Assembly (NCBI GenBank): GCA_045613785.1
Contig: JAZLBQ010000012.1
Span: 1 to 64,000 of the forward strand
Reading direction: 5' to 3'
DNA length: 64,000 nucleotides
Source: Candidatus Enterousia sp.
GTDB taxonomy: Bacteria > Pseudomonadota > Alphaproteobacteria > Rs-D84
The translations under genes were made by a program, and so were the position numbers. Shown here piece after piece: positions 3,916 to 55,669 of this stretch (its first letter is position 1; every line of letters begins with the position of its first letter). The notes beneath the pieces are model-generated. The model had not been told where the DNA came from. It did no database searches and saw only the letters and a list, made by a program, of their open reading frames with translations.

Positions 3916-4239
3916 ATGTCTTTTACACAAGAACACGAAACAAATTTGCATGTCGGACCAAATGGAAAAAATTCCGATGGCTGTGACAAGCGTTGCAAAC
4001 TTGGTCACCATTGGTTTACCGGATGGTTCCTCAGCGGAAGTAACAGACTTACAGACTATTGTTGTCCAACCATAGACGGTCAGCCAATCAAGCGGTACAA
4101 GGGGCCGAACGGTGAAATTGTTGATGCCTACCGAATTTATGATGGTTGCACCCCTTATCAAAGGGACCGTATGCTGAAACAGATAAACGAACTGGCACAT
4201 GAAATAGTTAAACTCTGCGATTGTTACAAGACCAGATAA
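3916..4239 (+). CDS. Cys-rich hypothetical protein ending YKTR
   Basis: ATG at 3916 with AAAGG RBS; 107 aa. Confidence 0.75.
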   Translation: MSFTQEHETNLHVGPNGKNSDGCDKRCKLGHHWFTGWFLSGSNRLTDYCCPTIDGQPIKRYKGPNGEIVDAYRIYDGCTPYQRDRMLKQINELAHEIVKLCDCYKTR

Positions 4240-4275
4240 TTCAGTTCGAACACAAATTAGAAAAAGGTAAAATAA

Positions 4276-4707
4276 ATGCTTGATGAAAAAAAAGTTATGT
4301 TTCATTTGTGCAACCTAGATAAATCGAAATCTGTGGTTTTGACCAATTCTGATGGCAAAATTCATTATACTTCAATCAGAAATGCGGTTGGTATTGTTAG
4401 TGCTTTGCTAAAAAAAACCGACACAGAAGCCGGGTGTCTGTGGCCACGTGAATATGAATACATGAAAGTGGGGATGTATTACTGGGGCTTTGCAGGTGGA
4501 AGTGGTTGTGCAGATTTAAGATTAGAAATATCAACAGATTTTCGGGAATTACCAAAATATAATCGTGGTATAAACTGTGTCGGTCAATGGGAAGCCAGAA
4601 AATGTCTGCAAAATCTGGCGGCTGGTAAATGCAAAGATCCGTTTATTCGTAAAGAGATTGGCGAAGTCTTGTTTCCAGAACACTATGGTCCTCAAAAAAC
4701 CAGATAA
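4276..4707 (+). CDS. Cys-containing hypothetical protein ending QKTR
   Basis: 143 aa, AAAGG RBS, followed by a terminator. Confidence 0.8.
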   Translation: MLDEKKVMFHLCNLDKSKSVVLTNSDGKIHYTSIRNAVGIVSALLKKTDTEAGCLWPREYEYMKVGMYYWGFAGGSGCADLRLEISTDFRELPKYNRGINCVGQWEARKCLQNLAAGKCKDPFIRKEIGEVLFPEHYGPQKTR

Positions 4708-4717
4708 CAAATAAACA

Positions 4718-4745
4718 AAATCCACCTAATCGGGTGGATTTTTTA
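4718..4745 (+). terminator. Intrinsic terminator
   Basis: AATCCACC-TAATCG-GGTGGATT plus T tract. Confidence 0.75.
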
Positions 4746-4815
4746 TCTGTTGCAGAATTTAGGGCAGGGTGCTATATTTTATGTGTCCAATACAGAATAA
4801 CAAAAGGATTGTTTT

Positions 4816-5622
4816 ATGTTATTACAGGGTAAAAAGATTTTAATTACAGGTGTTGCAAACGATTGGTCTATGGCGTGGGCAATTGCCAAGCGTGCATCTG
4901 AAATGGGGGCTGAAATTGCAATGCCTTATGCGATGCCTGCACTGGAAAAGCGTGTTCGTCCACTGGCAGAATCAATTGGGGCAAAATTTGTCCAGGAATG
5001 CAATGTCCAAAACGATGCTCAAATGGATGATTTGTTTAATAAAATCGAAACAGAATGGGGGCACTTGGACGGTGTTTTGCACGCTATTGCGTTTTCTGAC
5101 AAGAATGAGCTAACAGGTCGCTATGCCGATACAACTCGTGATAATTTCAAGAACACAATGGATATTTCTGTATATTCTTTGGTTGATATTACACGGCGTG
5201 CATCACGTTTGATGACAAATGGTGGCAGCATTGTAACCTTGACATACTATGGTGGGGAAAAATCTGTTCCAAACTATAATGTTATGGGTGTGGCAAAATC
5301 TGCACTGGACAGCAGTGTTCGATATCTGGCGTCTGACCTGGGGCGCGATGGAATTCGTGTAAATGCGATTAGTGCTGGCCCAATTATGACCTTGGCGTCC
5401 AGTGGTGTTGGCGGATTCAAGGCGATGTTGCGTCTGAACGCAGAAACAACGCCGCTGCGTCGTAATATGACCTTGGACGATGTTTCCGGGGCAGCGATGT
5501 ATCTGTTTAGTGATTTGTCATCTGGTGTGACAGGTGAGGTGCATCATGTTGATTGTGGGTATTCTACAACAGGTATGTTGCCAAACGAAATGAAAGACAT
5601 TTTATTGAAAGGTCTGGATTAG
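4816..5622 (+). CDS. fabI: Enoyl-ACP reductase (NADH)
   Basis: GKKILITGVAN, YNVMGVAKSAL, RVNAISAGPI motifs. Confidence 0.96.
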   Translation: MLLQGKKILITGVANDWSMAWAIAKRASEMGAEIAMPYAMPALEKRVRPLAESIGAKFVQECNVQNDAQMDDLFNKIETEWGHLDGVLHAIAFSDKNELTGRYADTTRDNFKNTMDISVYSLVDITRRASRLMTNGGSIVTLTYYGGEKSVPNYNVMGVAKSALDSSVRYLASDLGRDGIRVNAISAGPIMTLASSGVGGFKAMLRLNAETTPLRRNMTLDDVSGAAMYLFSDLSSGVTGEVHHVDCGYSTTGMLPNEMKDILLKGLD

Positions 5623-5712
5623 AAAAAAAAGTCCCCGGAAACGCCCGGGGATTTTTTAAGTTTGCTTTTTATTTGTAATATTGTTATCCTAGACCCCTGA
5701 AAAAGGATTTAT

Positions 5713-6735
5713 ATGTCAGTCAAGGCAAAACGCCTGATAAAAAAGATTATTAGTTATTCGGGTGTGTTTTTCTTTATCGTTGCTGCAGGAATGTTATGGT
5801 GGCAGTTGCGTTCTTATAGTTTATCGGATATTGCCCATGCAATCATTGATATCCCAATGGCGAATTTAGTTGGTGCATGCGTTGCATGCCTGTTGGGGTA
5901 TTTGGCATTGTCATTGTATGATTATTTGGCGTTAAACTATGTTGGGGGCAAAGTTACCTGGTGGAAATGGATGCTGGCTGGAATGCTAGGCTTTGCCATC
6001 AGTAATAATGCGGGGCACGCTGTGGTCAGTGGCGGTGCAATCCGCTATCGTCTTTATACACGCTGGCGTATTCGTGGTGGCGACATTGTCAAGATGTTGA
6101 CCATCTCAGGTTTCACATATTTCTTGGGTGCTTCTGCGATTGTTGTAATTAGTTATTTTATGGTTCCACACGAATTGTTTGAAAGTTCTGTTGGTGCATC
6201 TGTTGGTATTAATGCATTGTTTATATTCTGTTTATCGACATTATTAGCGTATTTTGCCACGACAATGTTCTTTTACAAGAAAAGCATTAAAATAGGTGAT
6301 ATTAAATTCCAGATTCCATCAACCAAGATGGCATTTTCTCAGACTTTGCTGGGCATAACTGACAGTGTTTTGGCTGGTCTGGTGTTGTATTTTTGTTTGA
6401 TACCATTTGTTGATATTCCATTTGTGATATTTATTGGATTGTTTGCGATTGCCCAGTCCACAGGTGTGTTTAGCCAAGTTCCAGGTGGTATTGGTGTTTT
6501 TGAAAGTGTGTTTATGCTGGCGTTGCCTGATACTGTGGACAAGGCGAATATTTTTGGTGCGTTGCTTGCCTATCGCATAATTTACTATGTTTTTCCACTG
6601 ATTGGCATGGGCAGTTTGTTCTTTGTTTACGAACGCTGGCTACGCAGTCGCATGAAACGTTGGCTGGCAGAAGCCAAGGAAAAAATCCCAGCAAAAATCA
6701 ACCAGATAAAATCCGAAATAAAAATCAGAAAATAA
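5713..6735 (+). CDS. Lysylphosphatidylglycerol synthase TM-domain (MprF flippase-like / UPF0104) protein
   Basis: Polytopic; SGGAIRYRLY, VPGGIGVFE, LLAYRIIYY motifs. Confidence 0.85.
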   Translation: MSVKAKRLIKKIISYSGVFFFIVAAGMLWWQLRSYSLSDIAHAIIDIPMANLVGACVACLLGYLALSLYDYLALNYVGGKVTWWKWMLAGMLGFAISNNAGHAVVSGGAIRYRLYTRWRIRGGDIVKMLTISGFTYFLGASAIVVISYFMVPHELFESSVGASVGINALFIFCLSTLLAYFATTMFFYKKSIKIGDIKFQIPSTKMAFSQTLLGITDSVLAGLVLYFCLIPFVDIPFVIFIGLFAIAQSTGVFSQVPGGIGVFESVFMLALPDTVDKANIFGALLAYRIIYYVFPLIGMGSLFFVYERWLRSRMKRWLAEAKEKIPAKINQIKSEIKIRK

Positions 6736-6776
6736 ATACCTTGCGAACTGGTATTATTGCGTGCTAGAATATCCCC

Positions 6777-6942
6777 AGTGTATGACACGGGGTTATTAAG
6801 CAAGTGTTTGTATTGTCGCTATTTTCAATAATTCGCAGTGCACTGATGGTTATCGTGGTGCAATCTCTTGGCATGGGCTTGGACGCCCCACGGGGACGGA
6901 TTATTGCCGTTGCATACGCCGCAAAAACAAAAGGATTATTAA
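6777..6942 (+). promoter_or_regulatory. Long structured 5' leader of the RNase E/G gene
   Basis: Promoter-like TTGCGA...TAGAAT at 6741..6770; long-range pairing 6780..6790 with 6907..6917; internal hairpins. Confidence 0.5.
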
Positions 6943-8736: not shown

Positions 8737-8739
8737 CAC

Positions 8740-8768
8740 AAATCCCCACGATGTGGGGATTTTTTTAT
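8740..8768 (+). terminator. Intrinsic terminator
   Basis: AATCCCCAC-GAT-GTGGGGATT plus T tract. Confidence 0.85.
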
Positions 8769-8807
8769 TGTTGAATATTCGGACGATTTTCACTAAATTT
8801 TATATAT

Positions 8808-12168: not shown

Positions 12169-12194
12169 AAATCCCCAAAACGGGGATTTTTTTA
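12167..12194. terminator. Bidirectional terminator
   Basis: AAAATCCCC-AAAAC-GGGGATTTT between convergent genes. Confidence 0.8.
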
Positions 12195-12198
12195 TTTA

Positions 12199-12447: not shown

Positions 12448-12510
12448 TTCTTTCTCCCATTTAATTTTGTTTGGACACCTGTATTATTGCAATGTTTTTT
12501 TATGCGCGCA

Positions 12511-13460: not shown

Positions 13461-13907
13461 TTATCTAGTATTCCAAGTATCAGAGTTTAATATAGTGTGC
13501 CACAATACGCTGAACATGTTTTTGAAATCTACATCTTTTTCTGGTTTTACATTATTCCAATCGACGGTAATCTTCCTAGGTGCAGGGCCATAGATATATT
13601 CGACATATCCACATGTTCTTGGCAATAAATTATGGTTTAATATTAAATCTAAATCGACTTTCTCGCACATATTATTTTTATCTTTCAAGCGACATTTGTA
13701 TATTTTGCAACGCTTTGTTTTTACATCCAGCCAATTACAACAAGCATGTGTATAAAAAGTCTTTGCAGCACCAGGTTCAATTTCCAATTCAATTTTACTC
13801 AGACAACAAATACCACAACCTTTGCATAGACTGTCCCATTGTTCTGGGGTCATTTTCTTCATTTTTTCTACACGTTGACGTTGTTCAGCAGTTAAATCGG
13901 TAGTCAT
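13461..13907 (-). CDS. YcgN/UPF0260 cysteine-cluster protein, ends WNTR
   Basis: QWDSLCKGCGICCLSK, C..Y..R....C, LP.TCGY. Confidence 0.85.
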   Translation of the reverse strand: MTTDLTAEQRQRVEKMKKMTPEQWDSLCKGCGICCLSKIELEIEPGAAKTFYTHACCNWLDVKTKRCKIYKCRLKDKNNMCEKVDLDLILNHNLLPRTCGYVEYIYGPAPRKITVDWNNVKPEKDVDFKNMFSVLWHTILNSDTWNTR

Positions 13908-14017
13908 TTGTATATTTCCTATGTATATATCAGAATTGAAAATATCACACAAAAACAATTTGTCAACGTTTTATTCTTTGACATATACAGGCGAAATATA
14001 TAATATTTAAATATCTG

Positions 14018-14781: not shown

Positions 14782-15537
14782 ATGAAAGAAGTAAAAATAA
14801 TACCCATTTTTGATCAAGCAGCCCCAGGAATCTGGGACAGTTTTGTTGGTTTGCGTGTAAACGCCATGCGGACAACCTGTAATCATAATATGAGCGACCA
14901 GGAAATCACAAACGCATTACAAGAATTGCGTTCGTCCTGGGGGCGTTTAAAGCATAATTTTGCGTTTGCTGCCTATGACGGTGAACGTATGGTTGGCTGT
15001 ATTCATGGCGATTGCCAGAACCGAACGGCTTTTGTCCGTCATTTATATGTTGCCCCAGAATATCAGCACCAGGGCATTGGTTTCAGCCTGCTTTCTGCTG
15101 CAGAACATTCATCGGCACTGGTTGCAAGTAAAACAGATATCGTTGCGTTGCCAAACGCTGAAAAGTTCTATCAACGCTATGGTTATACATCACCGTTGAA
15201 AACGAATAATTATTTCAAAGATATCAAGGGTAAACAGGCGTGCAGTGTTGTGCCATTGTTCAGTTGTTCGCCATCGCTTGCAAAACAGTTGGCAAAATTT
15301 TCACCAGAATTCAAACCAGAATATGTAAATCAGGGGCATTGTCCAGCGTTTGTATATTGTGATTACGAAATGCAGATTGGCGGATTTGGTTATGCAGAAC
15401 CAGATATCTCTTTGGATAAGCCGCAGATATTAGGACGCACCGCAATGCACGACGATTGGGGTCGTCGCTGTGTTGGCAAGGCGTTTGAAAACTTGTCATC
15501 GCATATAAATACCTTGTGTGAGCAGAAAAATCGCTAG
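14782..15537 (+). CDS. GNAT N-acetyltransferase, ends QKNR
   Basis: LYVAPEYQHQGIG acetyl-CoA motif; FYQRYGY. Confidence 0.88.
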   Translation: MKEVKIIPIFDQAAPGIWDSFVGLRVNAMRTTCNHNMSDQEITNALQELRSSWGRLKHNFAFAAYDGERMVGCIHGDCQNRTAFVRHLYVAPEYQHQGIGFSLLSAAEHSSALVASKTDIVALPNAEKFYQRYGYTSPLKTNNYFKDIKGKQACSVVPLFSCSPSLAKQLAKFSPEFKPEYVNQGHCPAFVYCDYEMQIGGFGYAEPDISLDKPQILGRTAMHDDWGRRCVGKAFENLSSHINTLCEQKNR

Positions 15538-26815: not shown

Positions 26816-27262
26816 TTATCTGGCTTTCTGATATGTGGTTGCACGTGGCAATTGGTTTTTTATTCTTGTGATAACTATACCGGGTCTTGCTTCATTGACG
26901 CCTGTAAAGCGATTTTTTATTCCACGATCGATATCCACGCTTTGGCTGGCTTTATACAGTGTCAGCAACACATCATAGAAAAATGTATTTTTTGCCATCA
27001 TGCTGGCATAGTGTGGATTTTTAAGCAGTTCAATGACGTGGCTGGTCACGTCGTCTGCAAATCTTCCAGTCAAGGCTTGTTCTGTCATCATATTTTGTTC
27101 CATTTGACAAAACAGGTCTGCCATCTTATGCATACTACTAGTAAATTCCTTGCTAATAGGGAACGATGCAATACTGTCGCCCAGAATGCGTCGCACCCGG
27201 CAGAAAATATCTTTTAGTGCTATAATATATTTTTCGCTATCGCTTAGTTGTAAATTAGACAT
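26816..27262 (-). CDS. Hypothetical protein ending QKAR
   Basis: Start MSNLQ 4 bp after the dcd stop; 148 aa. Confidence 0.75.
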   Translation of the reverse strand: MSNLQLSDSEKYIIALKDIFCRVRRILGDSIASFPISKEFTSSMHKMADLFCQMEQNMMTEQALTGRFADDVTSHVIELLKNPHYASMMAKNTFFYDVLLTLYKASQSVDIDRGIKNRFTGVNEARPGIVITRIKNQLPRATTYQKAR

Positions 27263-27266
27263 ATTT

Positions 27267-27998
27267 TTACCGCTTTTTTTGAATAAAGTCATCAATTGGA
27301 ATAATTGCGGCCGCTGTTGGTCCACGTTGACCGTTATAGTGGCTTGCAGGGTTTTTATCATATGGCATACGATTGCCAGAAAACTTTTCATAATAAATCT
27401 GACCGATACGCATATTCGGATAAACCACGGTTGGATACAGAACACGGATTTCCAGCGTCCATTCTCCGCAGAAACCATCGTCGCCCCGTCCAGCGGTATG
27501 GTGATTTAAAATAAAATTCCGTCCAACGCTAGATTTTCCGTCTATATACGGGAACAAGTTGCGTGTTTCTGTATATTCAACGGTCGAACCCAAATAACCG
27601 ACATCAGGTGATAAAATCAGACCTGTCGCTGGGATTTTTATATCGATTGTTTTATGGTGTTCTGGATTTGTAGGGTCTATTAAATAGCGTGGGTTTCGAA
27701 TGTCGTATTTCCAAGGACGGTCGATATAATCCAGATAATAATAAGGTTCTCTATCGTTCAGTGCGTATGCTTCTTTGCCTAAAAACCAATCCTTCATACT
27801 GTGCAGTTTTGGGTCGCCCTTGTATTCGATTGCGGGTTTCATTCCGTGTGGGATTGTATGTGCATAGACACGCAACGTGTCTGCCAGGTGCAAATCATAA
27901 CTATTTGACCCCAAGCATTTTAAATCAAAAGGTTCAATAATAATGTCTGGATTTTTTTCTTGCATACGCCGCAGAATTTCGGGACCTGTAAGTTGCAT
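27267..27998 (-). CDS. dcd: dCTP deaminase (trimeric dUTPase fold) with large insertion
   Basis: NSYDLHL, DGKSSVGR, TAGRGDDGFCGEWTLEI, MRIGQI. Confidence 0.9.
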   Translation of the reverse strand: MQLTGPEILRRMQEKNPDIIIEPFDLKCLGSNSYDLHLADTLRVYAHTIPHGMKPAIEYKGDPKLHSMKDWFLGKEAYALNDREPYYYLDYIDRPWKYDIRNPRYLIDPTNPEHHKTIDIKIPATGLILSPDVGYLGSTVEYTETRNLFPYIDGKSSVGRNFILNHHTAGRGDDGFCGEWTLEIRVLYPTVVYPNMRIGQIYYEKFSGNRMPYDKNPASHYNGQRGPTAAAIIPIDDFIQKKR

Positions 27999-28109
27999 AA
28001 TCTATATCCTTTTTATGTTGCCCCACCCACGCATAAATTTCTAGCAATAAAATCGCTGATTTGCAAGATTTTTATTCACTTTTCAAAATGTTGTGCTATG
28101 CTTTTTACC

Positions 28110-29006
28110 ATGACAGAAAAAACATATTCAGGCTTCGTTGCCATTATAGGCCCGACAAATGCGGGCAAAAGCACATTATTAAACCAAATTATGGGACGCA
28201 AAGTTTCGATTGTCTCGCACAAGGTGCAGACTACACGCACACGTTTGCGGGCGGTAAAAATGGTTGGTGCGAAACAGTTGATATTCGTTGATACTCCTGG
28301 TGTTTTCAAGCCTTCACGTCGTCTTGATCGTGCGATGGTTGCTGCTGCAATGGACGCAATCAGCGATGCTGATGCGGTCTTGTTGTTGGTTGACGCACAA
28401 AAGGGGATAACAGAAACAATTCGTGCCTTGGCACAAAAGGTGGCTGAACGTCCAAATATCTTTGTTGCGTTAAACAAGGTCGATGCGATTCCGAAACTGG
28501 AATTATTGCCAATGGTGGCTGAAATATCTCAGATGGCACCGTGGCGTGAAATCTTTATGATTTCGGCACTAAAAAATGACGGTATTGAAAAAATGTTGTC
28601 AGCTTTGGCGGACGTTATGCCGGAAAGTCCGTATTTGTTTGATCCGAACGATGCGCCAGATGTTCCAGATGAATTGTATTTATCTGAATTGACCCGTGAA
28701 AAGATATATCGCTATATTCACCAAGAATTGCCATATCACATCAACGTTGTAACAGAACGTGTTCAGGTTGCTGATGATGGCGTTTTGGATATTTTTCAGA
28801 AGATAGCGGTTCGTAACGATGGGCATAAAAAGATTGTTGTTGGCCGTGGTGGGGCTCAGTTAAAGCAAATTGGAACGGCTGCCCGTCTGGACATTCAAGA
28901 TCAGTGGGGGGTAAATGCTCGTCTGCATTTGTTTGTTCGTGTAGAACCAGACTGGGAAGAAAAGGCGGAAAACTACACCGACCAAGGGCTGGAGTTTAAA
29001 AAATAG
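28110..29006 (+). CDS. era: GTPase Era
   Basis: GPTNAGKSTL, VQTTR, DTPG, NKVD, KH domain. Confidence 0.97.
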   Translation: MTEKTYSGFVAIIGPTNAGKSTLLNQIMGRKVSIVSHKVQTTRTRLRAVKMVGAKQLIFVDTPGVFKPSRRLDRAMVAAAMDAISDADAVLLLVDAQKGITETIRALAQKVAERPNIFVALNKVDAIPKLELLPMVAEISQMAPWREIFMISALKNDGIEKMLSALADVMPESPYLFDPNDAPDVPDELYLSELTREKIYRYIHQELPYHINVVTERVQVADDGVLDIFQKIAVRNDGHKKIVVGRGGAQLKQIGTAARLDIQDQWGVNARLHLFVRVEPDWEEKAENYTDQGLEFKK

Positions 29007-29015: not shown

Positions 29016-29390
29016 ATGGGAATTTATAATAAAGTATTACCATATTTATTGGTGGCAGCTGGTTTTGTTTGCACTGGTTGCGAACAAGATTACAGTGATG
29101 TTATCGTATCAAAGAAAGACAACAAGGTTTATCTGGACAGAAATAACAACGGTTATGCAGATGTTCATATAAAATATTCTGGCATGGATACCGTTAGTAA
29201 TATCTGGTTTAAATCGATGCAGCCAGGCGATACGTTGCATTATGCTGTTCGCCCATCTTTTGACAAGATTGCTATTCCCAGCACCAGGGTTCATCACAAA
29301 TACCTAAACGACAATGACTTTGTTGATTTGTATAATGAGTATAGAAATAACAAGGTTCGTAATAAATTACAACGTTTCAAGAATCGATAA
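29016..29390 (+). CDS. Hypothetical lipoprotein-like protein ending FKNR
   Basis: Signal peptide with CTGC; RBS AGGA. Confidence 0.75.
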   Translation: MGIYNKVLPYLLVAAGFVCTGCEQDYSDVIVSKKDNKVYLDRNNNGYADVHIKYSGMDTVSNIWFKSMQPGDTLHYAVRPSFDKIAIPSTRVHHKYLNDNDFVDLYNEYRNNKVRNKLQRFKNR

Positions 29391-30417: not shown

Positions 30418-31719
30418 ATGAAATACAACCCAACCCTGCATAAATTATCAAATGGTGTAACGGTTATATTAGACCCGATGGAACTGGAAACAACATCGAT
30501 AAAGGTCAGTTTTTGCACTGGTTCTCGTGATGAAAAGCCAAATGAATATGGTTTAACTCATTTTTGTGAACATATGTTATGCAAGGGAACGCCACGTTTT
30601 CCGACCAAGAAAATACGTGATGATTATCTGGACTATCATGGTGGTGGCTGTAATGCATCGACGGGGCGTGGTGTTTTGTCTTTCTACGGTCGTATTATTG
30701 CTAAAAATGCAAATGTTATGCTAGATTTTATTGGCGACCAATTACAAAATTCGTTGTTTGATTCATCAAAGATAGAGATAGAACGTCGTGTAATTTGTGA
30801 CGAGTTGCGTCGTGCATTGGATAATCCTGGTCGTCAGTTTGATGATTTTATGTCAAAGACATTGTTTGGTGGGCAGACATTTTCGACTTTGAATTTGGGG
30901 ACGCTTGAAACAATCAATTCGTTTACACGGGATCAGATGCTGGAATTTTTATCTCGTCGTTTGTCGGCCAAGAATTGTATAATTTGTGTATCTGGGCGAA
31001 TAATTGACCCAGTCGCAATGTTAGAGCAGATTGAAAAATCATTTTCGTTTTTGCCAACACACGACGTGCCAGAAAATACATATATTCCATATACGCCAAC
31101 CGTTGCACATAATCCTAAACCAGACAAAGAAAACGTTAGGCTTCGTATAATATTTCCAGACGTTTGGCCATTGTTGTTTGAGAACATATACAATAACATA
31201 TGCGTTGGGCGTTTTGAACGTTTTATGATAAAAGAAATCTCGGACGTTTTGCGTCAGGATAATGGACTTGTGTATGGGTTCAGTGGATTTGCTGTTGGAA
31301 ACGAGCATCATTATTGGAATGGTTTTTCGACCCAGACATCTTCTGAAAATATTCCAACGGTTGTTAAATTGATTGCCCAAAAGGCATCTGAAATATACTC
31401 AGCACCAAAAATAACCGAAGCCGATTTGGATCGCTATAATCGCAAGGATGCCCTAGCTGATGCTGATTGGTTGGAGTCCGCTACACGTCGTTGCGACAAG
31501 TTGATTGCACATTATCGTGATTATGGTCGCATTTTTGATTTTTATGAAATGTTCAAGTTATTTACGCAATTGACGCCCTCGGATGTTGTAAAGAACACTC
31601 GCGGTTATTTTGATGGCCCAATATCAATTATTACCCAAGGGGCAGATTTTGACTGTGATTTGAAATCTGTTTGGGATGAAAATTTTAACACTAAAACCGA
31701 AACCAAAGGGGAAAAATAA
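30418..31719 (+). CDS. M16 family zinc peptidase
   Basis: LSNGVTV, GSRDE, HFCEH inverzincin motif. Confidence 0.92.
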   Translation: MKYNPTLHKLSNGVTVILDPMELETTSIKVSFCTGSRDEKPNEYGLTHFCEHMLCKGTPRFPTKKIRDDYLDYHGGGCNASTGRGVLSFYGRIIAKNANVMLDFIGDQLQNSLFDSSKIEIERRVICDELRRALDNPGRQFDDFMSKTLFGGQTFSTLNLGTLETINSFTRDQMLEFLSRRLSAKNCIICVSGRIIDPVAMLEQIEKSFSFLPTHDVPENTYIPYTPTVAHNPKPDKENVRLRIIFPDVWPLLFENIYNNICVGRFERFMIKEISDVLRQDNGLVYGFSGFAVGNEHHYWNGFSTQTSSENIPTVVKLIAQKASEIYSAPKITEADLDRYNRKDALADADWLESATRRCDKLIAHYRDYGRIFDFYEMFKLFTQLTPSDVVKNTRGYFDGPISIITQGADFDCDLKSVWDENFNTKTETKGEK

Positions 31720-32165
31720 TGGCAATGCCTCTTGTGATTGTTCGTGCATTACCAACGGCGGCACGTGCATTGGCTAAACCACATGTGTTCAAACGCTTTC
31801 TAGGGACACGGGCGGGCAAGCGTGCAACACTAAAATACGGAACAATGCTGGTAAAATCCAAAGATGTCCGTAATTCTGTTGGTAAATTTATGAAAAATAA
31901 TGGTTCGTTTCTACGGTCTAAAAAAGAATACCGCCAAAACGAACAAGAATACGCTAAATTGGTAAAGAAAATAGAAAAACTAGAACAGCAACTGGCGGAT
32001 GCAAAATTGAACGAGCAAAAAATGCAAGAATTGACATTTACACTTGGTCGTCAGGTTGTCCAAATGCGTCATTTGCTGGAAAAAATGGACGTTCAACGCC
32101 AGCAATATGCCCAAGAAATGTTGGCAGAATTCCGTCGTTTCCAGGGGCTGGACAAAACAAGATAA
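31719..32165 (+). CDS. Hypothetical basic coiled-coil protein ending DKTR
   Basis: 148 aa; overlaps the previous stop; heptad-like C-terminal half. Confidence 0.8.
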   Translation: MAMPLVIVRALPTAARALAKPHVFKRFLGTRAGKRATLKYGTMLVKSKDVRNSVGKFMKNNGSFLRSKKEYRQNEQEYAKLVKKIEKLEQQLADAKLNEQKMQELTFTLGRQVVQMRHLLEKMDVQRQQYAQEMLAEFRRFQGLDKTR

Positions 32166-33642
<1,477 letters not shown>

Positions 33643-37338: not shown

Positions 37339-38430
37339 TTATCTTTGTAATTGATTTCTGTTCGGCAACAGTTTTTTTATTCCTTTTTCTATGCGTTTTA
37401 TATTGTCAGGATTGCAAACACAACCTTCGCAACTGTTGTCCGAGCAAAAGTCGCAGCCAACTGGAAAGTATTTTAAATGACTGCTTACAGCATCGTGCCT
37501 CATCGTGCCGAATTCATGCATGTATTTCTGGTATATTGGTGCATATTGTGGATACTTTATCACTGCCATCAGAAAACTGCCATAGTTCTGCACCAATGCT
37601 GCAGAATATCTGTGGCGTGCCTTACTTGAAGACATAACGTTTGCATAGTCAGTCAGCGACCCGGAACGTCTATTATATAAATATATGCTATCACGAACGG
37701 TTGAAATTGTGTTTGCGTGCAATACTGCCAGTGAACAAAACAAGATATCTTCATCCAGTGGCATATCGATTTCAAATTGCAGTTTATGGTGTTTCAGAAA
37801 ATCACGTCGATAAATTGCAAAGTTTGCACTTTCACGATCAAAAGACTGTAAAACGATGATGTTTTTGTCGTTTATTTTTGTGCCAAAAGTTCGGTCTTGG
37901 TTATATGTCAGGGCTGTAATAGTTGATGTTTGATTTTGTATTGCAACCTTGCCACCCATAACGATTTCTGCTTTGTTTCTTTTTGCGGCGTCAATCATTC
38001 GTGTAAAATAATTTTTGTCGCCCAACAGTTGGTTTGGGAATCCTTCTTTGACCTGACCTTTTTGATATATCATATTTCCGTGCTTTGGATCGTCAATAAT
38101 TTTTTCAATAAACGGGGCAATCTTCTTAAAATTTACCCCAATCATATCATCTGCGTCGATAAAGCTGATAAACTCGCCACAAGCCATTTCCATGCCACGG
38201 TTGCGTGCCGCAGACACTCCCAGATTTCGTTGGCATGCTAACTCAATATTGTTATGTTTGATTGAATATTCCTGGACGATGCTTAGTCCATTATCAGTTG
38301 AGCCGTCATCGATAACAATTACTTGAAAGTTAGGGAATCCATTTTGCACGACGATACTGTCCAGGCATTGTTGAATATACTGGGCAGTGTTATGCATTGG
38401 TATAATAATCGACAGATACGGATTCTTCAT
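37339..38430 (-). CDS. Glycosyltransferase family 2, ends QLQR
   Basis: SIIIPMHN, IDDGSTD, GVSAARNRG, FIDADD. Confidence 0.92.
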   Translation of the reverse strand: MKNPYLSIIIPMHNTAQYIQQCLDSIVVQNGFPNFQVIVIDDGSTDNGLSIVQEYSIKHNNIELACQRNLGVSAARNRGMEMACGEFISFIDADDMIGVNFKKIAPFIEKIIDDPKHGNMIYQKGQVKEGFPNQLLGDKNYFTRMIDAAKRNKAEIVMGGKVAIQNQTSTITALTYNQDRTFGTKINDKNIIVLQSFDRESANFAIYRRDFLKHHKLQFEIDMPLDEDILFCSLAVLHANTISTVRDSIYLYNRRSGSLTDYANVMSSSKARHRYSAALVQNYGSFLMAVIKYPQYAPIYQKYMHEFGTMRHDAVSSHLKYFPVGCDFCSDNSCEGCVCNPDNIKRIEKGIKKLLPNRNQLQR

Positions 38431-43669: not shown

Positions 43670-44302
43670 ATGGCAAGAGCAGGTGCAAAGCGTAGCACAC
43701 GCAAATTGAAAATCGGACGTAGCCTGGGCGTAAACTTGTGGGGTCAGGCGAAATCTCCATTTAACAAACGTAAATATAAACCTGGTCAGCACGGTCCAAC
43801 ATCACGTGGTGGCAACTCATCTGATTATGCAAAACAGATGCGTGCAAAACAGACCTTAAAGGGTTATTATGGTAATATCGGCGAAAAGAAATTCCGCAAA
43901 TATTACATCGAAGCAAACAATATGAAGGGCGACACACCAGAAAACTTGATTGGTTTGTTGGAACGTCGTTTGGACGCAGTTGTATATCGTGCAAAATTGG
44001 CACCAACTGTATTCTCTTCACGTCAGTTGATTAGCCACGGTCATATCAACGTAAATGGCAAACGTGTAAAGATTGCATCATACCAGGTAAAACCAGGTGA
44101 TGTTATCACAGTCAGCGAAAAAGCAAAACAGATGCCATTGGTTGTTTTGGCATTGGAATCTGGCGAACGCAATTTTGCAGACTATGTTTCTGTTGACAGT
44201 GCAAACTTCACAGCAACATTTGTTCGTGTTCCAGCATTCGAAGACGTTCCATATCCTGTTCAGATGTTCCCAGAATTGGTCGTCGAATTCTATTCTCGCT
44301 AA
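43670..44302 (+). CDS. rpsD: 30S ribosomal protein S4
   Basis: [23 protein letters not shown]. Confidence 0.98.
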
Positions 44303-47219: not shown

Positions 47220-47248
47220 TAAAAAACGCCCAGACGGGCGTTTTTTTA
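47220..47248 (-). terminator. alaS terminator
   Basis: AAAAAACGCCC-AGAC-GGGCGTTTTTT. Confidence 0.85.
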
Positions 47249-49327: not shown

Positions 49328-49422
49328 ATCTGTTTCCCTTTAATTCTGGGGTATTGTATAAATATTCCCCCATTGTTTCAATCATATATTTAAGTTTTTT
49401 ATGAAAAATATCAAAAGTTGTA

Positions 49423-50238: not shown

Positions 50239-50323
50239 ATAAAAATCATAGCATAACAATTTGAAAAATTGCAAATACATACTTGTTTATGATATAATAC
50301 AAACTGTTCAAAAGGGGAATTTG

Positions 50324-50800
50324 ATGAAGCCAACAATGTTATTTGCAGTGGTTTTATTGACGATTATTGTTTTAATGTCATCGTTTGGGATACAGCTGTC
50401 GCCATCTGAACCATTGGCACTGTCTGCATCTGCGGCACCAAATACATTGTTTGTATGTCCAGCGGCCAGCAACACTTGGGATACGTTGGCAAAAGGGCTG
50501 GGGCAGTTTACCCGACCATTGATGATAGGTTTCTTTTTTGCGTTGATATTGTTGTGCTTTTCGTGGGCGTGGGCAATGTATCAAAATTTATTAAAAGACA
50601 AATTTGTTCGTGATGCGTTTAAAACGCCGTGGGCAGCGACCAAGTTGTTATTCTGGGCGGTTATATTAGTTTCTATGTTGGTATTGACTCCAAATCATTT
50701 TCGTAGTGTTCAGGTCAGTGGTCGTGCAGGACAGTGGGTATTATGCGAAAATAACACGCCTGGTGCTCTTGCAGTTCCTGCTGACAGCGTTCATCGCTAA
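50324..50800 (+). CDS. Hypothetical membrane protein
   Basis: RBS AAGGGG; signal/TM segment plus two further TM helices. Confidence 0.75.
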   Translation: MKPTMLFAVVLLTIIVLMSSFGIQLSPSEPLALSASAAPNTLFVCPAASNTWDTLAKGLGQFTRPLMIGFFFALILLCFSWAWAMYQNLLKDKFVRDAFKTPWAATKLLFWAVILVSMLVLTPNHFRSVQVSGRAGQWVLCENNTPGALAVPADSVHR

Positions 50801-50955
50801 GATACAATTTGTCAACAATGCAAAAATCAGGGGTTTTTTAATTATTGTCTTGACATAAACGGCGGATTTCTTTACGATTCGGACAAGCAGTAACAGAAAT
50901 GTCCTTTGAAACTGCGGGACACTATAAATAAAAAATTCTATGAAAGGAGAAACAA

Positions 50956-51228
50956 ATGAACAAACAACAACTGATTGAAGCAATCGCAAACGAAGTTGAC
51001 GTAACCAAGGCAACAGCTGCTGCTTGCTTGGATGCATTCATCAACACAGTTACAAAAGTTTTGAAAAAGAAAGGCGAAGTTCGTTTGGTTGGTTTTGGCA
51101 CATTTGCAACTGCAAAACGCAAAGCTACAACAGGCCGTAATCCTCAGACAGGCGATGCAATCAAAATCCCTGCTTCTACACAGCCTAAGTTCAAGCCAGG
51201 TAAAGCATTGAAAGAAGCTTTGAACTAA
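50956..51228 (+). CDS. hup: DNA-binding protein HU
   Basis: MNKQQLI, GFGTF, GRNPQTG, PKFKPGKALK. Confidence 0.97.
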   Translation: MNKQQLIEAIANEVDVTKATAAACLDAFINTVTKVLKKKGEVRLVGFGTFATAKRKATTGRNPQTGDAIKIPASTQPKFKPGKALKEALN

Positions 51229-51314
51229 AAACTGCAAAGTTAAAAAAAGCGTCCCGATTGGGGCGTGTTTTTTTATTGTCTTGATTTTAGTTAAAAATGC
51301 ACTATTATATAAAG

Positions 51315-51530
51315 TGTAGATAACAAGAATGTAGGTCTGTTTGCAGTTTTTTTCTGCACACAAGTGGAATTTATCCCTGTGTCTTTATTTTTAATAATAA
51401 AATACCATAGGGGTGCATAATGTCGCACGGCCCAGGATTCACTACGGATAAAGACGTAACAGAACCAAGGTCTTTATTGGCAATGAATTTTACGGCCGTG
51501 CAAATGTAAAACACTAAAAAAGGAAAATAA
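51315..51530 (+). promoter_or_regulatory. Long structured 5' leader of the RNase J gene
   Basis: GCACGGCC (51425..51432) pairs with GGCCGTGC (51494..51501), enclosing ATAAAGAC/GTCTTTAT. Confidence 0.5.
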
Positions 51531-53327
51531 ATGGTAAAAGTCCGTGAAAAAAAGACTACACCCACCAAGGGTGAAAAACCAAAAACACCACGTGCAATAC
51601 GTGGAATGAACAAGCACGAAACAGATGCGAACGATGACAAGATTTATTTTATGGCTTTGGGTGGTTTGGAACACATTGGCCAGAATATGTATGTCTATAA
51701 ATATCGTGGCAAATACCTAGTTGTTGATTGCGGTATGGGATTTCTGGACGAAGAAATCGGGGCAGGGGATGTTCAATACTGTGATACAACCTGGTTGGAA
51801 AAACGCAAGAAAGACGTTGTTGGCTTTGTGATTACGCACGGCCACGAAGACCATATTGGTGCATTAAAATATATTTGGCCAAAATTCAGAAAGCCGATTT
51901 ATTGCACACGCTTTCCAGCGGAAATCTTGCGTCAGACATTCAAGGGGATTGAACTGGATTTCAATCCGAACACAGATATCGTTGAATTTGATCACCAGGG
52001 TGCGATATTAAATTTAGATCCATTTACCGTTGAAACATTTCACGTTACTCACTCAGTGCCAGAAGCACAGATGTTGATTATTCAAACCCCATCGGGCAAG
52101 ATTTTACATACTGGCGACTGGACATTTAACGATGACAATCCAATTGAAGCCTCAACTAATTTTGATCGTTTGGCATCAATCGGTTCTGACCCAAAATTGC
52201 TGGCGTGTATGTGTGATTCGACAAATTCATCACGCCAAACGAAACAGACCACTGAAACTCAGGTTCGTGATGCACTGACAGAAATTATGAAAAACGCTCC
52301 TGGACGTGTTTTGGTAACAGGCTATTCACGCAGTTTGGCACGTATGAAAATGTTTGCCCAGGCTGCTCGTGCTGCCGGCCGTGTTGCTGCGATAAAAGAA
52401 CGTAGCAATCCAAATCCTGTGCCATATGTTGGTCTGCCAGAATTCCGTGAAATGGGCATAAAGTTTGGTTACATCAACAAAGACGATGTTTATCTGCACA
52501 GTGAAATCAAAGATTTGCCAGCAGAAAAACAGGCGATATTCTTGACTGGTTCTCAGGGGGAAAAGTTTGCTATGTTGACACGTTTGTGCCACGGCCAGGT
52601 CAAAGAATTAAAATTACAGCCAACTGACACAGTTGTATTTAGTGCTATTATTATTCCTGGTCGTGAACAAGACGTTTCTGCCTTGTATAATAAATTGGCA
52701 CGTATGGGTGTAAAAACACATACTATCTTTGATACAGATAATTTGCACGCCAGTGGCCATGCGGGCCGTCCAGAACTGGAACGTTTTTATGACATGGTTC
52801 ATCCTCAGGTTTCTGTTCCAATGCACGGTGATTACATCAACGAAATGTTAAATGGAAAGATGGCAATGGAACGTGGTGGTGCAAAACACATGATGGTTGT
52901 TCACAATGGTGAAATGATTGCGTTGTCAGATGGTGCCGAACCATATGTTGCTGAAACAATCCCAACCAGTTATGTTGTAATGGAAGGTGAAACGGAACGC
53001 AGTGCGAACGACCAGGTTTATAAAAACCGCAAGAAAATTGCGTCAAACGGTGCTGTGTTTGTAACATTGCCTGTGGACAAGCGTGGATTCTTAAAGGGCA
53101 CGCCCGAAGTTTCCAGTGCAGGTATTTTTGAAACTGACGAAACTGGCTTTATGAAGCGTCAGATTCAGATTGAAATTACACGTGCGATTGATGGTTTGAC
53201 CAAAACAGAACGCAAGGAAAAGAACAACCTGATACGTGCTGTTCAAGTTGCCTCGAACAAGGTTGTTCGTGCGGCACTTGGTGCGGACAAGAAACCACAA
53301 TACAGTGTTCATTTTGTTCAGAAATAA
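51531..53327 (+). CDS. rnj: Ribonuclease J
   Basis: LGGL..IG.N, THGHEDHIG, HTGDW, DSTN, TGSQGE, HASGHA, PMHG. Confidence 0.95.
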   Translation: MVKVREKKTTPTKGEKPKTPRAIRGMNKHETDANDDKIYFMALGGLEHIGQNMYVYKYRGKYLVVDCGMGFLDEEIGAGDVQYCDTTWLEKRKKDVVGFVITHGHEDHIGALKYIWPKFRKPIYCTRFPAEILRQTFKGIELDFNPNTDIVEFDHQGAILNLDPFTVETFHVTHSVPEAQMLIIQTPSGKILHTGDWTFNDDNPIEASTNFDRLASIGSDPKLLACMCDSTNSSRQTKQTTETQVRDALTEIMKNAPGRVLVTGYSRSLARMKMFAQAARAAGRVAAIKERSNPNPVPYVGLPEFREMGIKFGYINKDDVYLHSEIKDLPAEKQAIFLTGSQGEKFAMLTRLCHGQVKELKLQPTDTVVFSAIIIPGREQDVSALYNKLARMGVKTHTIFDTDNLHASGHAGRPELERFYDMVHPQVSVPMHGDYINEMLNGKMAMERGGAKHMMVVHNGEMIALSDGAEPYVAETIPTSYVVMEGETERSANDQVYKNRKKIASNGAVFVTLPVDKRGFLKGTPEVSSAGIFETDETGFMKRQIQIEITRAIDGLTKTERKEKNNLIRAVQVASNKVVRAALGADKKPQYSVHFVQK

Positions 53328-53416
53328 AAAAATCCCCCGTTTGGGGGAATTTTTACTTTACATATTTTTTTGAATTGAATACAATCGTAACGTCATACAA
53401 ATAAAGGAAAGGACAA

Positions 53417-53956
53417 ATGGCAGAAAAAACAACAAAAAAACCAGTTGCAAAAAAAGCGACTACTAAAAAGACAGTTTCTAAACCAGCTGTGGCAAAGAAG
53501 CCAACTGCTAAGAAAACAGCAACAAAAAAAGTCCAAGAAATCAAGGCTGTTGCATCAGCACCAGTTGTTGAAAAGCACGCTTGTGGTTGCGGTCATGATT
53601 GTGCATGCGGTGGTGAATGTGCATGTGCAAAAAAGAAATGCACATTTGGTCGTTTTTTGAAAAAAGTTGTTTTATTCTTGATTATCTTTGCGATGGGTTT
53701 TGCGACTGCAAAAATGTGCTGTTGCAAAAAGTTCGGCAAGATGGGGCCACGTCCAGAATTTGATAATGGGTGTTTGGTTGTAAAATGTCCAAAAATGGCA
53801 GAAAAGATTGCGATGATGGATGCGAACCAAGATGGTTGTGTTTCTCCTGAAGAGTTCAAGGCTGCACGCAAAATGATGAAACGCAGACCAGAAATGCCAG
53901 CAGAACAGCCGGTTGAACAACCTGCAGCTGTTCCTGCACCAGAAATGGCAGAATAA
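53417..53956 (+). CDS. Hypothetical protein: Lys-rich repeat, Cys cluster, TM helix, EF-hand
   Basis: KKPVAKKATTKK repeats; HACGCGHDCACGGECAC; TM; DANQDGCVSPEE loop. Confidence 0.8.
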   Translation: MAEKTTKKPVAKKATTKKTVSKPAVAKKPTAKKTATKKVQEIKAVASAPVVEKHACGCGHDCACGGECACAKKKCTFGRFLKKVVLFLIIFAMGFATAKMCCCKKFGKMGPRPEFDNGCLVVKCPKMAEKIAMMDANQDGCVSPEEFKAARKMMKRRPEMPAEQPVEQPAAVPAPEMAE

Positions 53957-54047
53957 AAATCGAATAACGATATAATGAAACCGCCATTTTGGCGGTTTTT
54001 TATATAAAAAAGCAGGACGGCAAAATAAAATCCCCAAATGGGGATTT

Positions 54048-54335
54048 TTATTTATTTGCTACACGTTCACGAAATTCATTGCTGGGTCGAAAGGTTGCAA
54101 CACGTCGTGCAGAAATAACGGCACTTTCGCCAGTTTTTGGGTTGCGTCCCATACGAGCGTTTTTTTCCAAGATTTTGAAACTGCCAAAACCTGCGAATTT
54201 AACTTCTTCGCCATTTATCAATGATTCACGAATTTCATCAAACACAACGTCAACCATTTTCAATGCATCTGCGGTTGTTAGACCAAAGCGTTCACGTAAT
54301 CTATCTGCAAAATCACTTCTTGTTATTGTTGCCAT
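54048..54335 (-). CDS. ihfA: Integration host factor subunit alpha
   Basis: TITRSDFA, GFGSF, GRNPKTGE, ISARRVATFRPS. Confidence 0.88.
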   Translation of the reverse strand: MATITRSDFADRLRERFGLTTADALKMVDVVFDEIRESLINGEEVKFAGFGSFKILEKNARMGRNPKTGESAVISARRVATFRPSNEFRERVANK

Positions 54336-54428
54336 TTTTCTTTACCCCTATATCTTGAAAACATATTATACAATCACAGAATATAACTTGCAATATTATT
54401 TTCGCATGAATAAAATAGGTATTGGTTT

Positions 54429-54504
54429 GTCCCCATAGTTCAATTGGATAGAACAAGTTCCTCCTAAGAATTAGATGCAGGTTCGATTCCTGCTGGGGAC
54501 GCCA
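54429..54504 (+). tRNA. tRNA-Arg (CCT)
   Basis: GTCCCCA/TGGGGAC acceptor, loop CTCCTAA, GCAGG-TTCGATT-CCTGC T-arm, CCA. Confidence 0.95.
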
Positions 54505-54776
54505 GTTCACGCAGGAAGCGAACCGTTCCAGCAACGTCAGTTGCGTCAGGTTCGGGACAAGCGAAGCGTAGTGAAAGGGGCCCGAAACGAAGTTTTGGGA
54601 ATTTACAATCCTGCTGGGGACGCCAGTTCACGCAGGAAGCGAACCGTCCCAGCAACGTCAGTTGCGTCAGGTTCGGGACAAGCGAAGCGTAGTGAAGGGG
54701 GCCCGAAACGAAGTTTTGGGAATTTACAATCCTGCTGGGGACGCCAGTTCACGCAGGAAGCGAACCGTTCCAGCAA
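54488..54776 (+). repeat. tRNA-linked tandem repeat, 121-bp period, ~2.4 copies
   Basis: Units start at 54488, 54609 and 54730, each beginning with the tRNA 3' 17-mer TCCTGCTGGGGACGCCA. Confidence 0.95.
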
Positions 54777-54793
54777 TGCCAGTTTCTTTTATT

Positions 54794-55669
54794 TTATCTA
54801 TGATTTTGTCGCATGAATAATGCAACGTCCTTGCGATCGTATCCGTATGCAGAATTCAAACCACGTGCCGCAAACGTATGCGGTTCGTTTTTTATCTGGG
54901 TGCGTTGAAAGAAATCCAAGAAATTAGACCACGCTGGTGCATTTCCTTCCCACAGATAATGAAAACCAATGCAACCATTATCTTTGTTCAAATTATTTTG
55001 TGCTAAAACTTTTAATATTTCGGAATAAAGGCGATAAAAACGCTGATCTTGCAATCTGTGTTCTGTAAACATATAGTCAAATATGTTCGACAGCATAATT
55101 ACATCGTATTTCTGGCTAAACCTTTTGCTTATATTCGATATATCGCAATGTTTAAAGTTTATCGTATCTGGCAGCAAATCACGTAATTTATAATAATTGT
55201 CTTTTTGTAGATATGTCAGGTTTGTGAACGTTGAATATTCCGGGTGGCATGCAGCCCGATATCGAAACATTTCACGGCCTTTGGTTTCGTATTTCGAAAA
55301 GAAGTATTGCAGATTTACTGAAAATTTATCATAAATTGGTTTGATAATTTTATGGTCAAAAAAATCTTTGCTGCTGAAAAAGAAACGCAAGAAGTCATCT
55401 CGTTCAACGTATTTTATCATGTGATTTTTCAGTTCGACAACACACCGTTGAAAAGAATTTATATCAAAAGTATCAACATTTTTTGCACCTGCTAAATAGG
55501 CCTCAAACATATGGTCGCCTGATGCAGCGACTGTCAAAACATTAGCGTTTTTCATATTGCCCAGGCTGCGAACATATTCTGCAACATTTTCATTAGAAAA
55601 CAAGAAAACTGGTGCTTTGTCTTGGAACGCATAGTTTGCAGGGATAAAAATATCGTCGTCTTTATTCAT
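54794..55669 (-). CDS. SAM-dependent transferase-like protein (DUF3419/BtaA-like), ends QNHR
   Basis: FSNEN, VLTVAASGDH, DTFDIN, YDVIMLSNI. Confidence 0.75.
   Translation of the reverse strand: MNKDDDIFIPANYAFQDKAPVFLFSNENVAEYVRSLGNMKNANVLTVAASGDHMFEAYLAGAKNVDTFDINSFQRCVVELKNHMIKYVERDDFLRFFFSSKDFFDHKIIKPIYDKFSVNLQYFFSKYETKGREMFRYRAACHPEYSTFTNLTYLQKDNYYKLRDLLPDTINFKHCDISNISKRFSQKYDVIMLSNIFDYMFTEHRLQDQRFYRLYSEILKVLAQNNLNKDNGCIGFHYLWEGNAPAWSNFLDFFQRTQIKNEPHTFAARGLNSAYGYDRKDVALFMRQNHR

Follow-up and report, generated by a model that had tools for sequence, protein, structure and literature searches.

The 64-kb window analysed here is the start of contig C12 in a metagenome-assembled genome of Candidatus Enterousia (order Rs-D84; 1.04 Mb in 26 contigs, 41% GC; G000 in the following). 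Eleven of its proteins end in a short basic tail, i.e., YKTR, QKTR, WNTR, QKNR, QKAR, QKKR, FKNR, DKTR, QLQR, QNHR or, as a Lys version, QKAK. Our analyses showed that these endings belong to a lineage-specific C-terminal motif that recurs throughout the genome and sits chiefly on accessory genes. The statistics are strong, and the feature is real, replicated and apparently undescribed; no paper in the library searched combines 'Rs-D84' with 'type IV secretion'. We tentatively take the tail for a recognition tag at the C-terminus and consider a type IV secretion signal, with VirD4 as its most plausible reader, the likeliest kind; we regard this proposal as plausible yet somewhat short of probable. 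The original prediction for this stretch had listed the eleven tails together with their last Arg codons (AGA seven times, CGC, CGG and CGA once each), and translation returned all of them exactly as listed. Pfam and NCBIfam likewise upheld its labels GNAT, GT2, YcgN-like, DUF3419-like and dCTP deaminase, the remaining carriers being orphans.

Genes were called with a purpose-written caller that uses a hexamer log-odds score, is trained on open reading frames (ORFs) of at least 300 amino acids and selects non-overlapping candidates greedily. It returned 1088 genes (90.6% coding), with stop positions that are independent of start choice; two further window genes claimed as tail carriers were not called. 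For comparison, 0.55-0.59 Mb was sampled from each of three genomes, namely G002, a second Enterousia species, and G022 and G019, which are members of other Rs-D84 families and both have 31% GC. Genes with a reciprocal best match in any of the three were taken as core (569 genes), the remaining G000 genes as accessory (519). Since the comparison covers parts of these genomes, some conserved genes remain in the accessory class, and the contrast between the classes is hence conservative.

Terminal Arg per se is ordinary. Across the 1088 genes the last residue is Lys in 260 cases (3.6 times its bulk composition), Glu in 129 (2.1 times) and Arg in 93 (1.8 times), and the Arg factor, more exactly 1.81, is close to the 1.76-fold enrichment published, beside 2.32-fold for Lys, for the last position over 1,582 bacterial genomes (Weber et al. 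2020, PMC7246954). What is unusual is the distribution of terminal Arg among genes, together with the residues coupled to it. Arg ends 71 of 519 accessory proteins (13.7%) and 22 of 569 core proteins (3.9%; Fisher p 7e-9), corresponding to factors of 3.3 and 0.8, respectively, and to about 51 accessory Arg-enders above the number expected at the core rate. For the proteome as a whole, terminal Arg enrichment thus only matches the pan-bacterial bias, which corrects the original prediction, whereas the latter's picture of a tail dispersed over unrelated, mostly orphan proteins and largely lacking from the core is borne out. Within the window, 12 of 67 genes end in Arg, against 81 of 1021 in the rest of the genome (binomial p 0.006).

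The residues before the terminal Arg are constrained as well. We tested 683 patterns over the last four residues of G000 proteins against a position-independent expectation. Gln at position -4 with Arg at the end (Q..R-stop) was the strongest of all, seen 23 times with 5.3 expected (p 1e-8), followed by QK.R (9 with 0.81 expected) and.KTR (7 with 0.69 expected); as a positive control, the same test recovered the known outer-membrane beta-signal (.Y.F, RY.F). Q..R is 29 times commoner at the C-terminus than internally in the same proteins, and it ends 21 accessory and 2 core genes. A motif that we used for carrier counts, [QE][KRH].[RK] or [KRH][TQ][RK] at the C-terminus, fits 40 of 519 accessory and 7 of 569 core genes. 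Accessory proteins as a class differ from core proteins in Gln at -4 (9.4% vs 2.3%), Lys at -3 (18.3% vs 12.5%) and Thr at -2 (6.7% vs 3.2%). Inside the accessory class, Gln(-4) occurs in 21 of 71 Arg-enders and in 28 of 448 others (odds ratio 6.3, p 9e-8), a basic residue (K/R/H) at -3 in 40 of 71 and 102 of 448 (p 3e-8), and Thr(-2) in 13 of 71 and 22 of 448 (p 3e-4). A mixture model with two components was also fitted to the last six residues; it gave KKQKTR as a local optimum and not as its best solution, and we did not use it.

Codon choice before the stop explains only part of this. The terminal Arg codon is CGA or AGA in 62% of cases compared to 22% internally, and A occupies the third position of the last codon in 57% of core and 52% of accessory genes, with 30% internally; the A-ending preference of the last codon is seen for Lys, Gln, Leu and Gly too. 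Because this NNA-stop bias is equal in core and accessory genes, it accounts for codon choice but not for the difference between the classes, and about 38% of terminal Arg codons do not end in A, both genome-wide and in the dCTP-deaminase family. Hence neither of the two outcomes that the original prediction had named as fatal to it, an orphan Arg frequency at or below that of core genes or an origin in AGA-TAA stop context, is what we found. The share of A at third codon positions rises toward the stop, from 0.30 internally to 0.37-0.41 at codons -2 to -8 and 0.54 at the last codon; this A-rich trend fades over about eight codons and is weaker in the two 31% GC relatives. Expression level, with coding score as proxy, is not supported as a cause. 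Within either class the Arg-end frequency is flat along the score, and the roughly threefold accessory excess persists per band (26/150 accessory vs 3/74 core, 21/175 vs 7/164 and 10/86 vs 9/240).

A tail without any reader might also arise as a by-product of common descent, of 3'-end shuffling among mobile or cassette genes, or of mRNA selection for A-rich unstructured 3' ends. Some carriers do lie in tandem small-gene arrays, one family shares a whole C-terminal module of about 40 residues, and the A-rich codon trend just described points the same way. Yet the 93 Arg-enders fall into 89 blastp families and the 23 Q..R proteins into 22, which rules out paralogy, and a DNA repeat at the stops could be ruled out too, the sole shared sequence being an ordinary, stereotyped intrinsic terminator, which is present at the ends of 13 of the 93 Arg-enders and of 108 of the 1088 genes overall. 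Moreover, carrier GC is near that of other accessory genes (median 0.385 vs 0.398, rank test p 0.016), carriers do not cluster in the genome (9 adjacent pairs vs 8.8 expected), and the end is conserved as an amino acid and not as DNA, as detailed below. We therefore consider a by-product very unlikely. The terminator itself (AAAAATCCCCC-loop-GGGGGATTTTT) is highly stereotyped and lies 3' of at least 108 of the 1088 genes, for example downstream of the window gene 51531-53327.

That the motif is an artefact of gene calling or mere chance is barely credible and already largely refuted. The caller is home-made and does return some spurious accessory ORFs, such as C12:83664-84002 on the tmRNA gene. 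Stops, on the other hand, do not depend on the start chosen, any spurious ORFs would weaken a motif and not produce one, 13 of the 21 accessory Q..R carriers are at least 150 amino acids long, and the pattern is replicated in a second genome as well as in orthologue sets obtained by tblastn without any gene calling.

These orthologue ends were gathered across the genus on fetched loci; related loci come from animal and human guts, and for one carrier 130 stretches that encode a relative were confirmed. The 92 orthologues of the dCTP-deaminase-like protein end in Arg (66), Lys (24) or His (2). Most have Lys at -3, as do 34 of the 40 distinct four-residue endings listed; Arg is encoded by all six of its codons, and indels vary the distance of the end from the conserved PIDxF block. 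Among 15 close orthologues of the orphan at 31719 the last residue is Arg in 14 and Lys in one, the usual form being [H/R/K]-T-R after a variable Gln-rich stretch that can be aligned only with gaps; two distant homologues are without the tail. In the GNAT family (20 orthologues, 27-63% identity) the last 45 or so residues are unalignable, and the ends are nevertheless Arg in 12, Lys in 7 and Tyr in one. All four YcgN-like orthologues found end in Arg (WNTR, WNKR, WNHR, GRQR), and the 34 ORFs of the 4276 family in 30 loci end in Lys (25), Arg (8) or His (1). For two further carriers the ends are Lys 5, Arg 2, Leu 2 and Glu 1 among ten tblastn relatives of the 26816 orphan in genus loci, and Arg 5 and Leu 4 among nine relatives of the 29016-29390 protein. 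Control neighbours kept other residues or none in particular: Ile in 16 of 16 in one, Phe or Tyr in 10 of 14 in another, and in a third, with 60 ends, Glu 18, Ala 10, Gln 7, Asn 5, Arg 5, Lys 4 and others. The control family 27960-29006 was left aside, since out-of-frame HSPs had spoiled part of it. Synonymous turnover and Lys/Arg exchange, with upstream indels around a fixed basic end, argue for selection on the protein C-terminus, and the counts indicate that selection holds a basic last residue in five unrelated families (90/92, 15/15, 33/34, 19/20 and 4/4). The claim that the residue is conserved above the DNA is thus confirmed by the use of all six Arg codons and by Lys exchanges among orthologues. 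That Arg alone makes up the signal, on the other hand, had to be revised, since Lys freely replaces Arg and the ending is better written as approximately [Q/E]-[K/R/H]-x-[R/K]-COOH.

The motif is a property of the lineage. In the second Enterousia species Q..R is again the top pattern (7 seen with 1.04 expected; 248 patterns tested), and Arg ends 13 of 97 genes without a match and 9 of 323 with a match outside the genus; for Gln(-4) the numbers are 13 of 97 and 6 of 323. In contrast, the genomes from the two other families gave no Arg-end enrichment in no-match genes (3/204 vs 11/369 in G022, 9/267 vs 17/337 in G019) and, in the 0.55-0.59 Mb covered per genome, neither a Gln(-4) excess nor any coupling. 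Their top C-terminal patterns are poly-Lys, with.KKK seen 16 times in each genome where about 5 are expected. A small 100-kb sample of a sister genus (G095) contained 3 Arg-ending genes among 90, with 10 genes lacking a match. Single sister-genus homologues end in NQERY (dCTP-deaminase-like) and in HKTK and HKVRS (DUF3419-like), from which it follows that the motif may extend somewhat past the genus within the family. A dCTP-deaminase-like homologue from another family of the order ends in SNGLG and, like the NQERY homologue, is without the tail; the YcgN-like query had no match in five sister-genus genomes.

Might the tail instead act on stability or termination? The motif would then be a lineage-specific sharpening of the general Lys/Arg preference that slows degradation or eases termination, without export; conserved abundant proteins would take Lys, and young or lowly expressed lineage-specific ones Arg with polar neighbours. 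The pan-bacterial enrichment (K 2.32x, R 1.76x) is accompanied by effects of Lys/Arg C-termini on degradation, and abundant proteins enrich Lys rather than Arg (PMC7246954). In our data the last position is Lys or Arg in about 32-33% of both classes (core 160 K and 22 R of 569, accessory 100 K and 71 R of 519), Lys and Arg interchange among orthologues, and Gln, Lys, Thr and Arg all have A-rich codons that would fit the A-rich trend over the last eight or so codons. The genome also encodes tmRNA, SspB and two S41 tail-specific-type peptidases. Enterousia resembles the published bias in that both Lys and Arg are enriched at the end, Lys being dominant in conserved genes here and in abundant proteins there. 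The published bias, though, is described as a smooth gradient along the last residues and as qualitatively independent of functional category (PMC7246954), whereas Arg in Enterousia splits core from accessory genes, is coupled to positions -4, -3 and -2, and does so in one lineage only. A stability effect does not explain why Arg(-1) goes together with Gln, a basic residue and Thr at their particular positions (-4, -3 and -2). It also sits poorly with an Arg-end frequency that does not depend on coding score within either class, with accessory genes of two sister families that lack the pattern while sharing the general Lys bias, and with the terminal Arg codons, some 38%, that do not end in A. 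The background, and perhaps the Lys of core genes, can be put down to the general Lys/Arg bias, but the coupling and the restriction to class and lineage cannot. Altogether we rate a pure stability or termination tag as unlikely, though as a rival of some weight.

Carriers of the tail share little apart from their ends. Their last 20 residues have a net charge of +2.48, compared to +0.31 for other accessory proteins, and residues -20 to -5 still +0.88 compared to +0.13; the tails are hydrophilic, Glu-depleted and mildly Gln-enriched (5.7% vs 4.1% over -24 to -5). No domain of about 100-120 residues is common to the 89 blastp families, and only the 4276 family has a module of its own, of about 40 residues. 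A hydrophobic N-terminus, taken in a crude hydrophobicity test as a sign of an export signal, occurs in 5 of 40 motif carriers and in 123 of 431 other accessory proteins, and a membrane helix of any kind is predicted for 7 of the 40 motif carriers. Among 78 further tail-bearing proteins, 48 match no Pfam family at E<=1e-5. Accessory enzymes with the tail include a ClpP-like protein, two APH-like kinases, GH108, an OLD-family nuclease, a DnaJ-domain protein, DUF7192 with an AAA_5 ATPase, GNAT_C and Metallophos proteins. The housekeeping carriers among the 78 are S9, ThyA, MscL, YidC, EF-P, LpxK, MreC, MltA, AckA and an OmpA-like protein, whose basic end is probably ancestral or unrelated. AF2 models the 31719 protein as a helical bundle with low confidence in the last eight or so residues; Foldseek found no PDB match for this model at E<=0.001. 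In the ESM Atlas, two orphans scored 0.77 and 0.86, and neither was assigned to a named family.

We hence looked at what could read such a tail. The original prediction had proposed a check for virB/virD4, and Pfam matches above cut-off were obtained for VirB3, VirB4, VirB8, VirB9, VirB10, a VirB11-like ATPase and VirD4. The vir gene groups each lie amid housekeeping genes and not on an obvious mobile element, a scattered layout that recalls the arrangement of vir homologues in Rickettsiales. Of 81 genomes sampled from across Rs-D84, 80 have VirD4, and its identity is 72-89% among the 120 closest relatives listed from the database, a strong conservation for genomes so reduced. VirB10 (800 amino acids; C4:71781-74183) belongs to a four-member paralogue family ending in C-F-P-P-x-x (including C3:106208-108409 and C26:28815-29666); one large paralogue (733 amino acids) has no Pfam match and is followed by a 90-residue protein ending in MKQQQR. 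The virD4 gene adjoins and converges with the gene for the ClpX adaptor SspB (C26:105735-108481), and the remaining neighbours are genes for the modification of rRNA and tRNA.

VirB/D4 substrates of Agrobacterium, Bartonella and Xanthomonas require a positive, often Arg-containing extreme C-terminus (PMC8740702, PMC11098119), and the all-alpha domain of VirD4 is negatively charged (PMC11098119). In Agrobacterium VirF, which ends in Arg-Gly-Leu, single Arg residues as well as the last one to three residues are required; the XVIPCD tails of Xanthomonas have a Gln-rich part followed by a positive, mostly Arg end, and removal of the last 6 residues abolishes transfer and killing (PMC8740702). Like VirF, VirE2 and VirE3 of Agrobacterium and the post-BID tails of Bartonella, whose signal lies in an unstructured hydrophilic C-terminus, the Enterousia endings are hydrophilic and basic, sit on unrelated carriers and occur in an alphaproteobacterial host with VirD4; like XVIPCD they are mildly Gln-enriched before a basic end. 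The X-Tfes, the bacteria-killing type IV effectors of Xanthomonadales with XVIPCD tails, however, share a folded domain of about 120 residues that binds the VirD4 all-alpha domain, and since Enterousia carriers have no shared upstream domain they fall outside both the XVIPCD and the BID family. Known VirB/D4 signals are also a loose charge over about 20 residues with a non-basic last residue, in contrast to the position-locked Enterousia tetrapeptide with Gln(-4) and Arg or Lys at the end, and while transfer was shown in the known systems, the likeness seen here is one between sequences.

Sorting signals with a basic end offer a further comparison. LPXTG, PEP-CTERM and GlyGly-CTERM proteins combine a motif with a transmembrane helix before a basic cluster and carry an N-terminal signal peptide. 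The Enterousia tails share with them a basic C-terminal cluster on many unrelated proteins of one lineage, but are hydrophilic and have no hydrophobic helix directly before that cluster, unlike sortase or exosortase signals.

From this comparison a working model can be sketched. The tag, with a consensus of about [Q/E]-[K/R/H]-[T/Q/x]-[R/K]-COOH and usually preceded by a mildly basic, Gln-containing and Glu-poor stretch, would be read at the protein level from the free C-terminus. It might mark about 50-90 of the roughly 1090 Enterousia proteins, mostly lineage-specific orphans or modified enzymes. The VirB/VirD4 coupling protein could recognise it, and the carriers would then make up a scattered set of effectors for delivery to a partner cell. 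We infer the link to type IV export, and likewise that there is a single reader, that this reader is VirD4 and that the carriers leave the cell. In its full form, in which a position-locked Q-[K/R/H]-x-[R/K]-COOH is the address for a chromosomal VirB/VirD4 machine and some 50-90 effectors (5-8% of a 1-Mb genome) are injected into host or prey, the model is possible but on balance doubtful.

A different reader could recognise the same ends, namely an AAA+ protease for which the tail is a degron or adaptor motif, or a type I (TolC-dependent) exporter with a C-terminal signal. ClpX is known to read basic motifs of the MuA type at C-termini, and certain type I substrates depend on a terminal tetrapeptide that is exposed. 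The genome has three TolC-family genes, SspB adjoins virD4, and a ClpP-like protein is among the carriers. However, no ABC/MFP (ATP-binding cassette/membrane fusion protein) partner was linked to the carriers in this analysis, known type I terminal motifs are acidic and hydrophobic rather than basic, and we know of no precedent for a degron on 5-8% of a proteome that is concentrated in orphans. Such a reader seems to us distinctly unlikely. Besides the TolC-family genes, the other systems in the genome are a type IV pilus or type II secretion system-like cluster and the two S41 tail-specific-type peptidases. An alpha-type, two-piece tmRNA (C12:83937-84314, outside the window) was identified by Rfam with 155 bits and missed by ARAGORN; the ORF C12:83664-84002 overlaps its gene and is probably spurious.

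Several observations weigh against type IV export by way of VirD4. The Pfam models for VirB6/TrbL and VirB2/TrbC, both divergent families, match nothing in the genome, so that the components identified make up part of a channel. The two other families of the order, in which the motif is not seen, have VirD4 to the same extent. The domain scans revealed no eukaryote-like or known effector-type domain in any carrier, tails also occur on ordinary housekeeping enzymes (thymidylate synthase, acetate kinase and LpxK among them), and 17 of 71 accessory Arg-enders, including the 29016-29390 protein, have a hydrophobic N-terminus. A general Lys/Arg bias at bacterial C-termini, with Lys rather than Arg favoured in abundant proteins, is already known (PMC7246954), and the core and accessory classes depend on our own gene caller and on partial genomes. 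Furthermore, the dCTP-deaminase-like tail is modelled at pLDDT 80-86, and solved Dcd enzymes also run about 10 residues past the conserved GQRGPT block. The original question of whether tails are appended is hence answered in the negative for this protein, where the tail corresponds to the C-terminal arm normal for the family and may serve catalysis or the enzyme itself. A complex prediction that paired VirD4 residues 140-749 (20-row alignment) with the C-terminal 64 residues of the 31719 orphan (15-row alignment) scored 0.00 in both runs and weighs neither way.

Table 1. Tail carriers and other Arg-ending genes of the window, and type IV secretion genes elsewhere in the genome (contig given before the coordinates; aa, amino acids).
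Feature	Location	Strand	Basis or remark
Small Cys-containing orphan, 107 aa, ends CDCYKTR	3916..4239	+	no Pfam/NCBIfam family
Orphan, 143 aa, ends PQKTR	4276..4707	+	multi-copy genus family
YcgN-like cysteine-cluster protein, ends WNTR	13461..13958	-	profile match
GNAT acetyltransferase, ends EQKNR	14782..15537	+	Pfam; 110-aa C-terminal extension of no recognised family
Orphan, ~148 aa from ATG 27262, ends YQKAR	26816..27262	-	translation, trimmed model
dCTP-deaminase-like protein, 100-aa N-terminal extension, ends FIQKKR	27267..27998	-	Pfam, NCBIfam
Small fast-evolving protein, hydrophobic N-terminus, ends RFKNR	29016..29390	+	translation
All-helical orphan, 148 aa, ends LDKTR	31719..32165	+	orthologues, AF2 model
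Orphan, ends CDNQKAK (Lys version)	33241..33642	+	Pfam/NCBIfam scan
Family-2 glycosyltransferase (GT2), ends NQLQR	37339..38430	-	Pfam, NCBIfam
DUF3419-like protein, ends RQNHR	54794..55669	-	Pfam; paralogue C8:11715-12569 ends LQRIR
Membrane protein, ends DSVHR; further accessory Arg-ender beyond the eleven	50261..50800	+	translation
Ribosomal protein S4, ends FYSR	43670..44302	+	Pfam, NCBIfam
VirB3-VirB4	C26:60031-62753		Pfam above cut-off
VirB8-VirB9-VirB10	C4:71781-76443		Pfam above cut-off
VirB11-like ATPase	C3:523-1518		Pfam above cut-off
VirD4	C26:105735-107984		Pfam above cut-off

Some gene models of the window were adjusted (Table 1). The ORF 3883-4239 was trimmed to the ATG at 3916, the start that the original prediction had given; its protein is a full-length paralogue of C1:49766-50077, which ends in CDYYKTR (38% identity, E 1.5e-17), and the gene forms a tandem with that at 4276. 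The latter belongs to a family (loci L183-L211) that is genus-wide, multi-copy and often tandem, with variable N-terminal parts and a Cys-containing C-terminal module of about 40 residues, C..NL..GKC.D.FI..T.G..L.P.HY...KQ[KR], which is often the sole alignable part. This architecture can be likened to polymorphic effector or toxin families; neither Pfam, NCBIfam nor the Atlas gave a match. The ORF 26816-27478 runs into the 3' end of the dCTP-deaminase-like gene; the true start of this ORF is most likely the ATG at 27262, so that the orphan begins 4 bases past the stop of that gene. The short gap between the two tail-bearing genes suggests co-transcription. Terminal Arg of ribosomal protein S4, whose orthologues end in FYSR in G019 and FYSRQ in G022, is ancestral and lies outside the tail phenomenon.

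Rs-D84 bacteria, including Enterousia, are described as common but uncultured gut inhabitants with strongly reduced genomes and most biosynthesis missing, and a partner-dependent lifestyle, living off another cell, was proposed for them; in the searched passages of that report the word 'secretion' is absent (PMC12306168). Should the tail prove to be a stability cap, the universal C-terminal Lys/Arg bias could split by gene age within one genome, with a bearing on annotation and expression of such genes. If the tail is a type IV signal, in turn, it would be a rare one that can be written as a short motif, and the first consensus-type signal for a VirB/D4-class machine. The last four residues would then list the effector repertoire of a partner-dependent gut bacterium and yield concrete, testable candidates for its interaction proteins.

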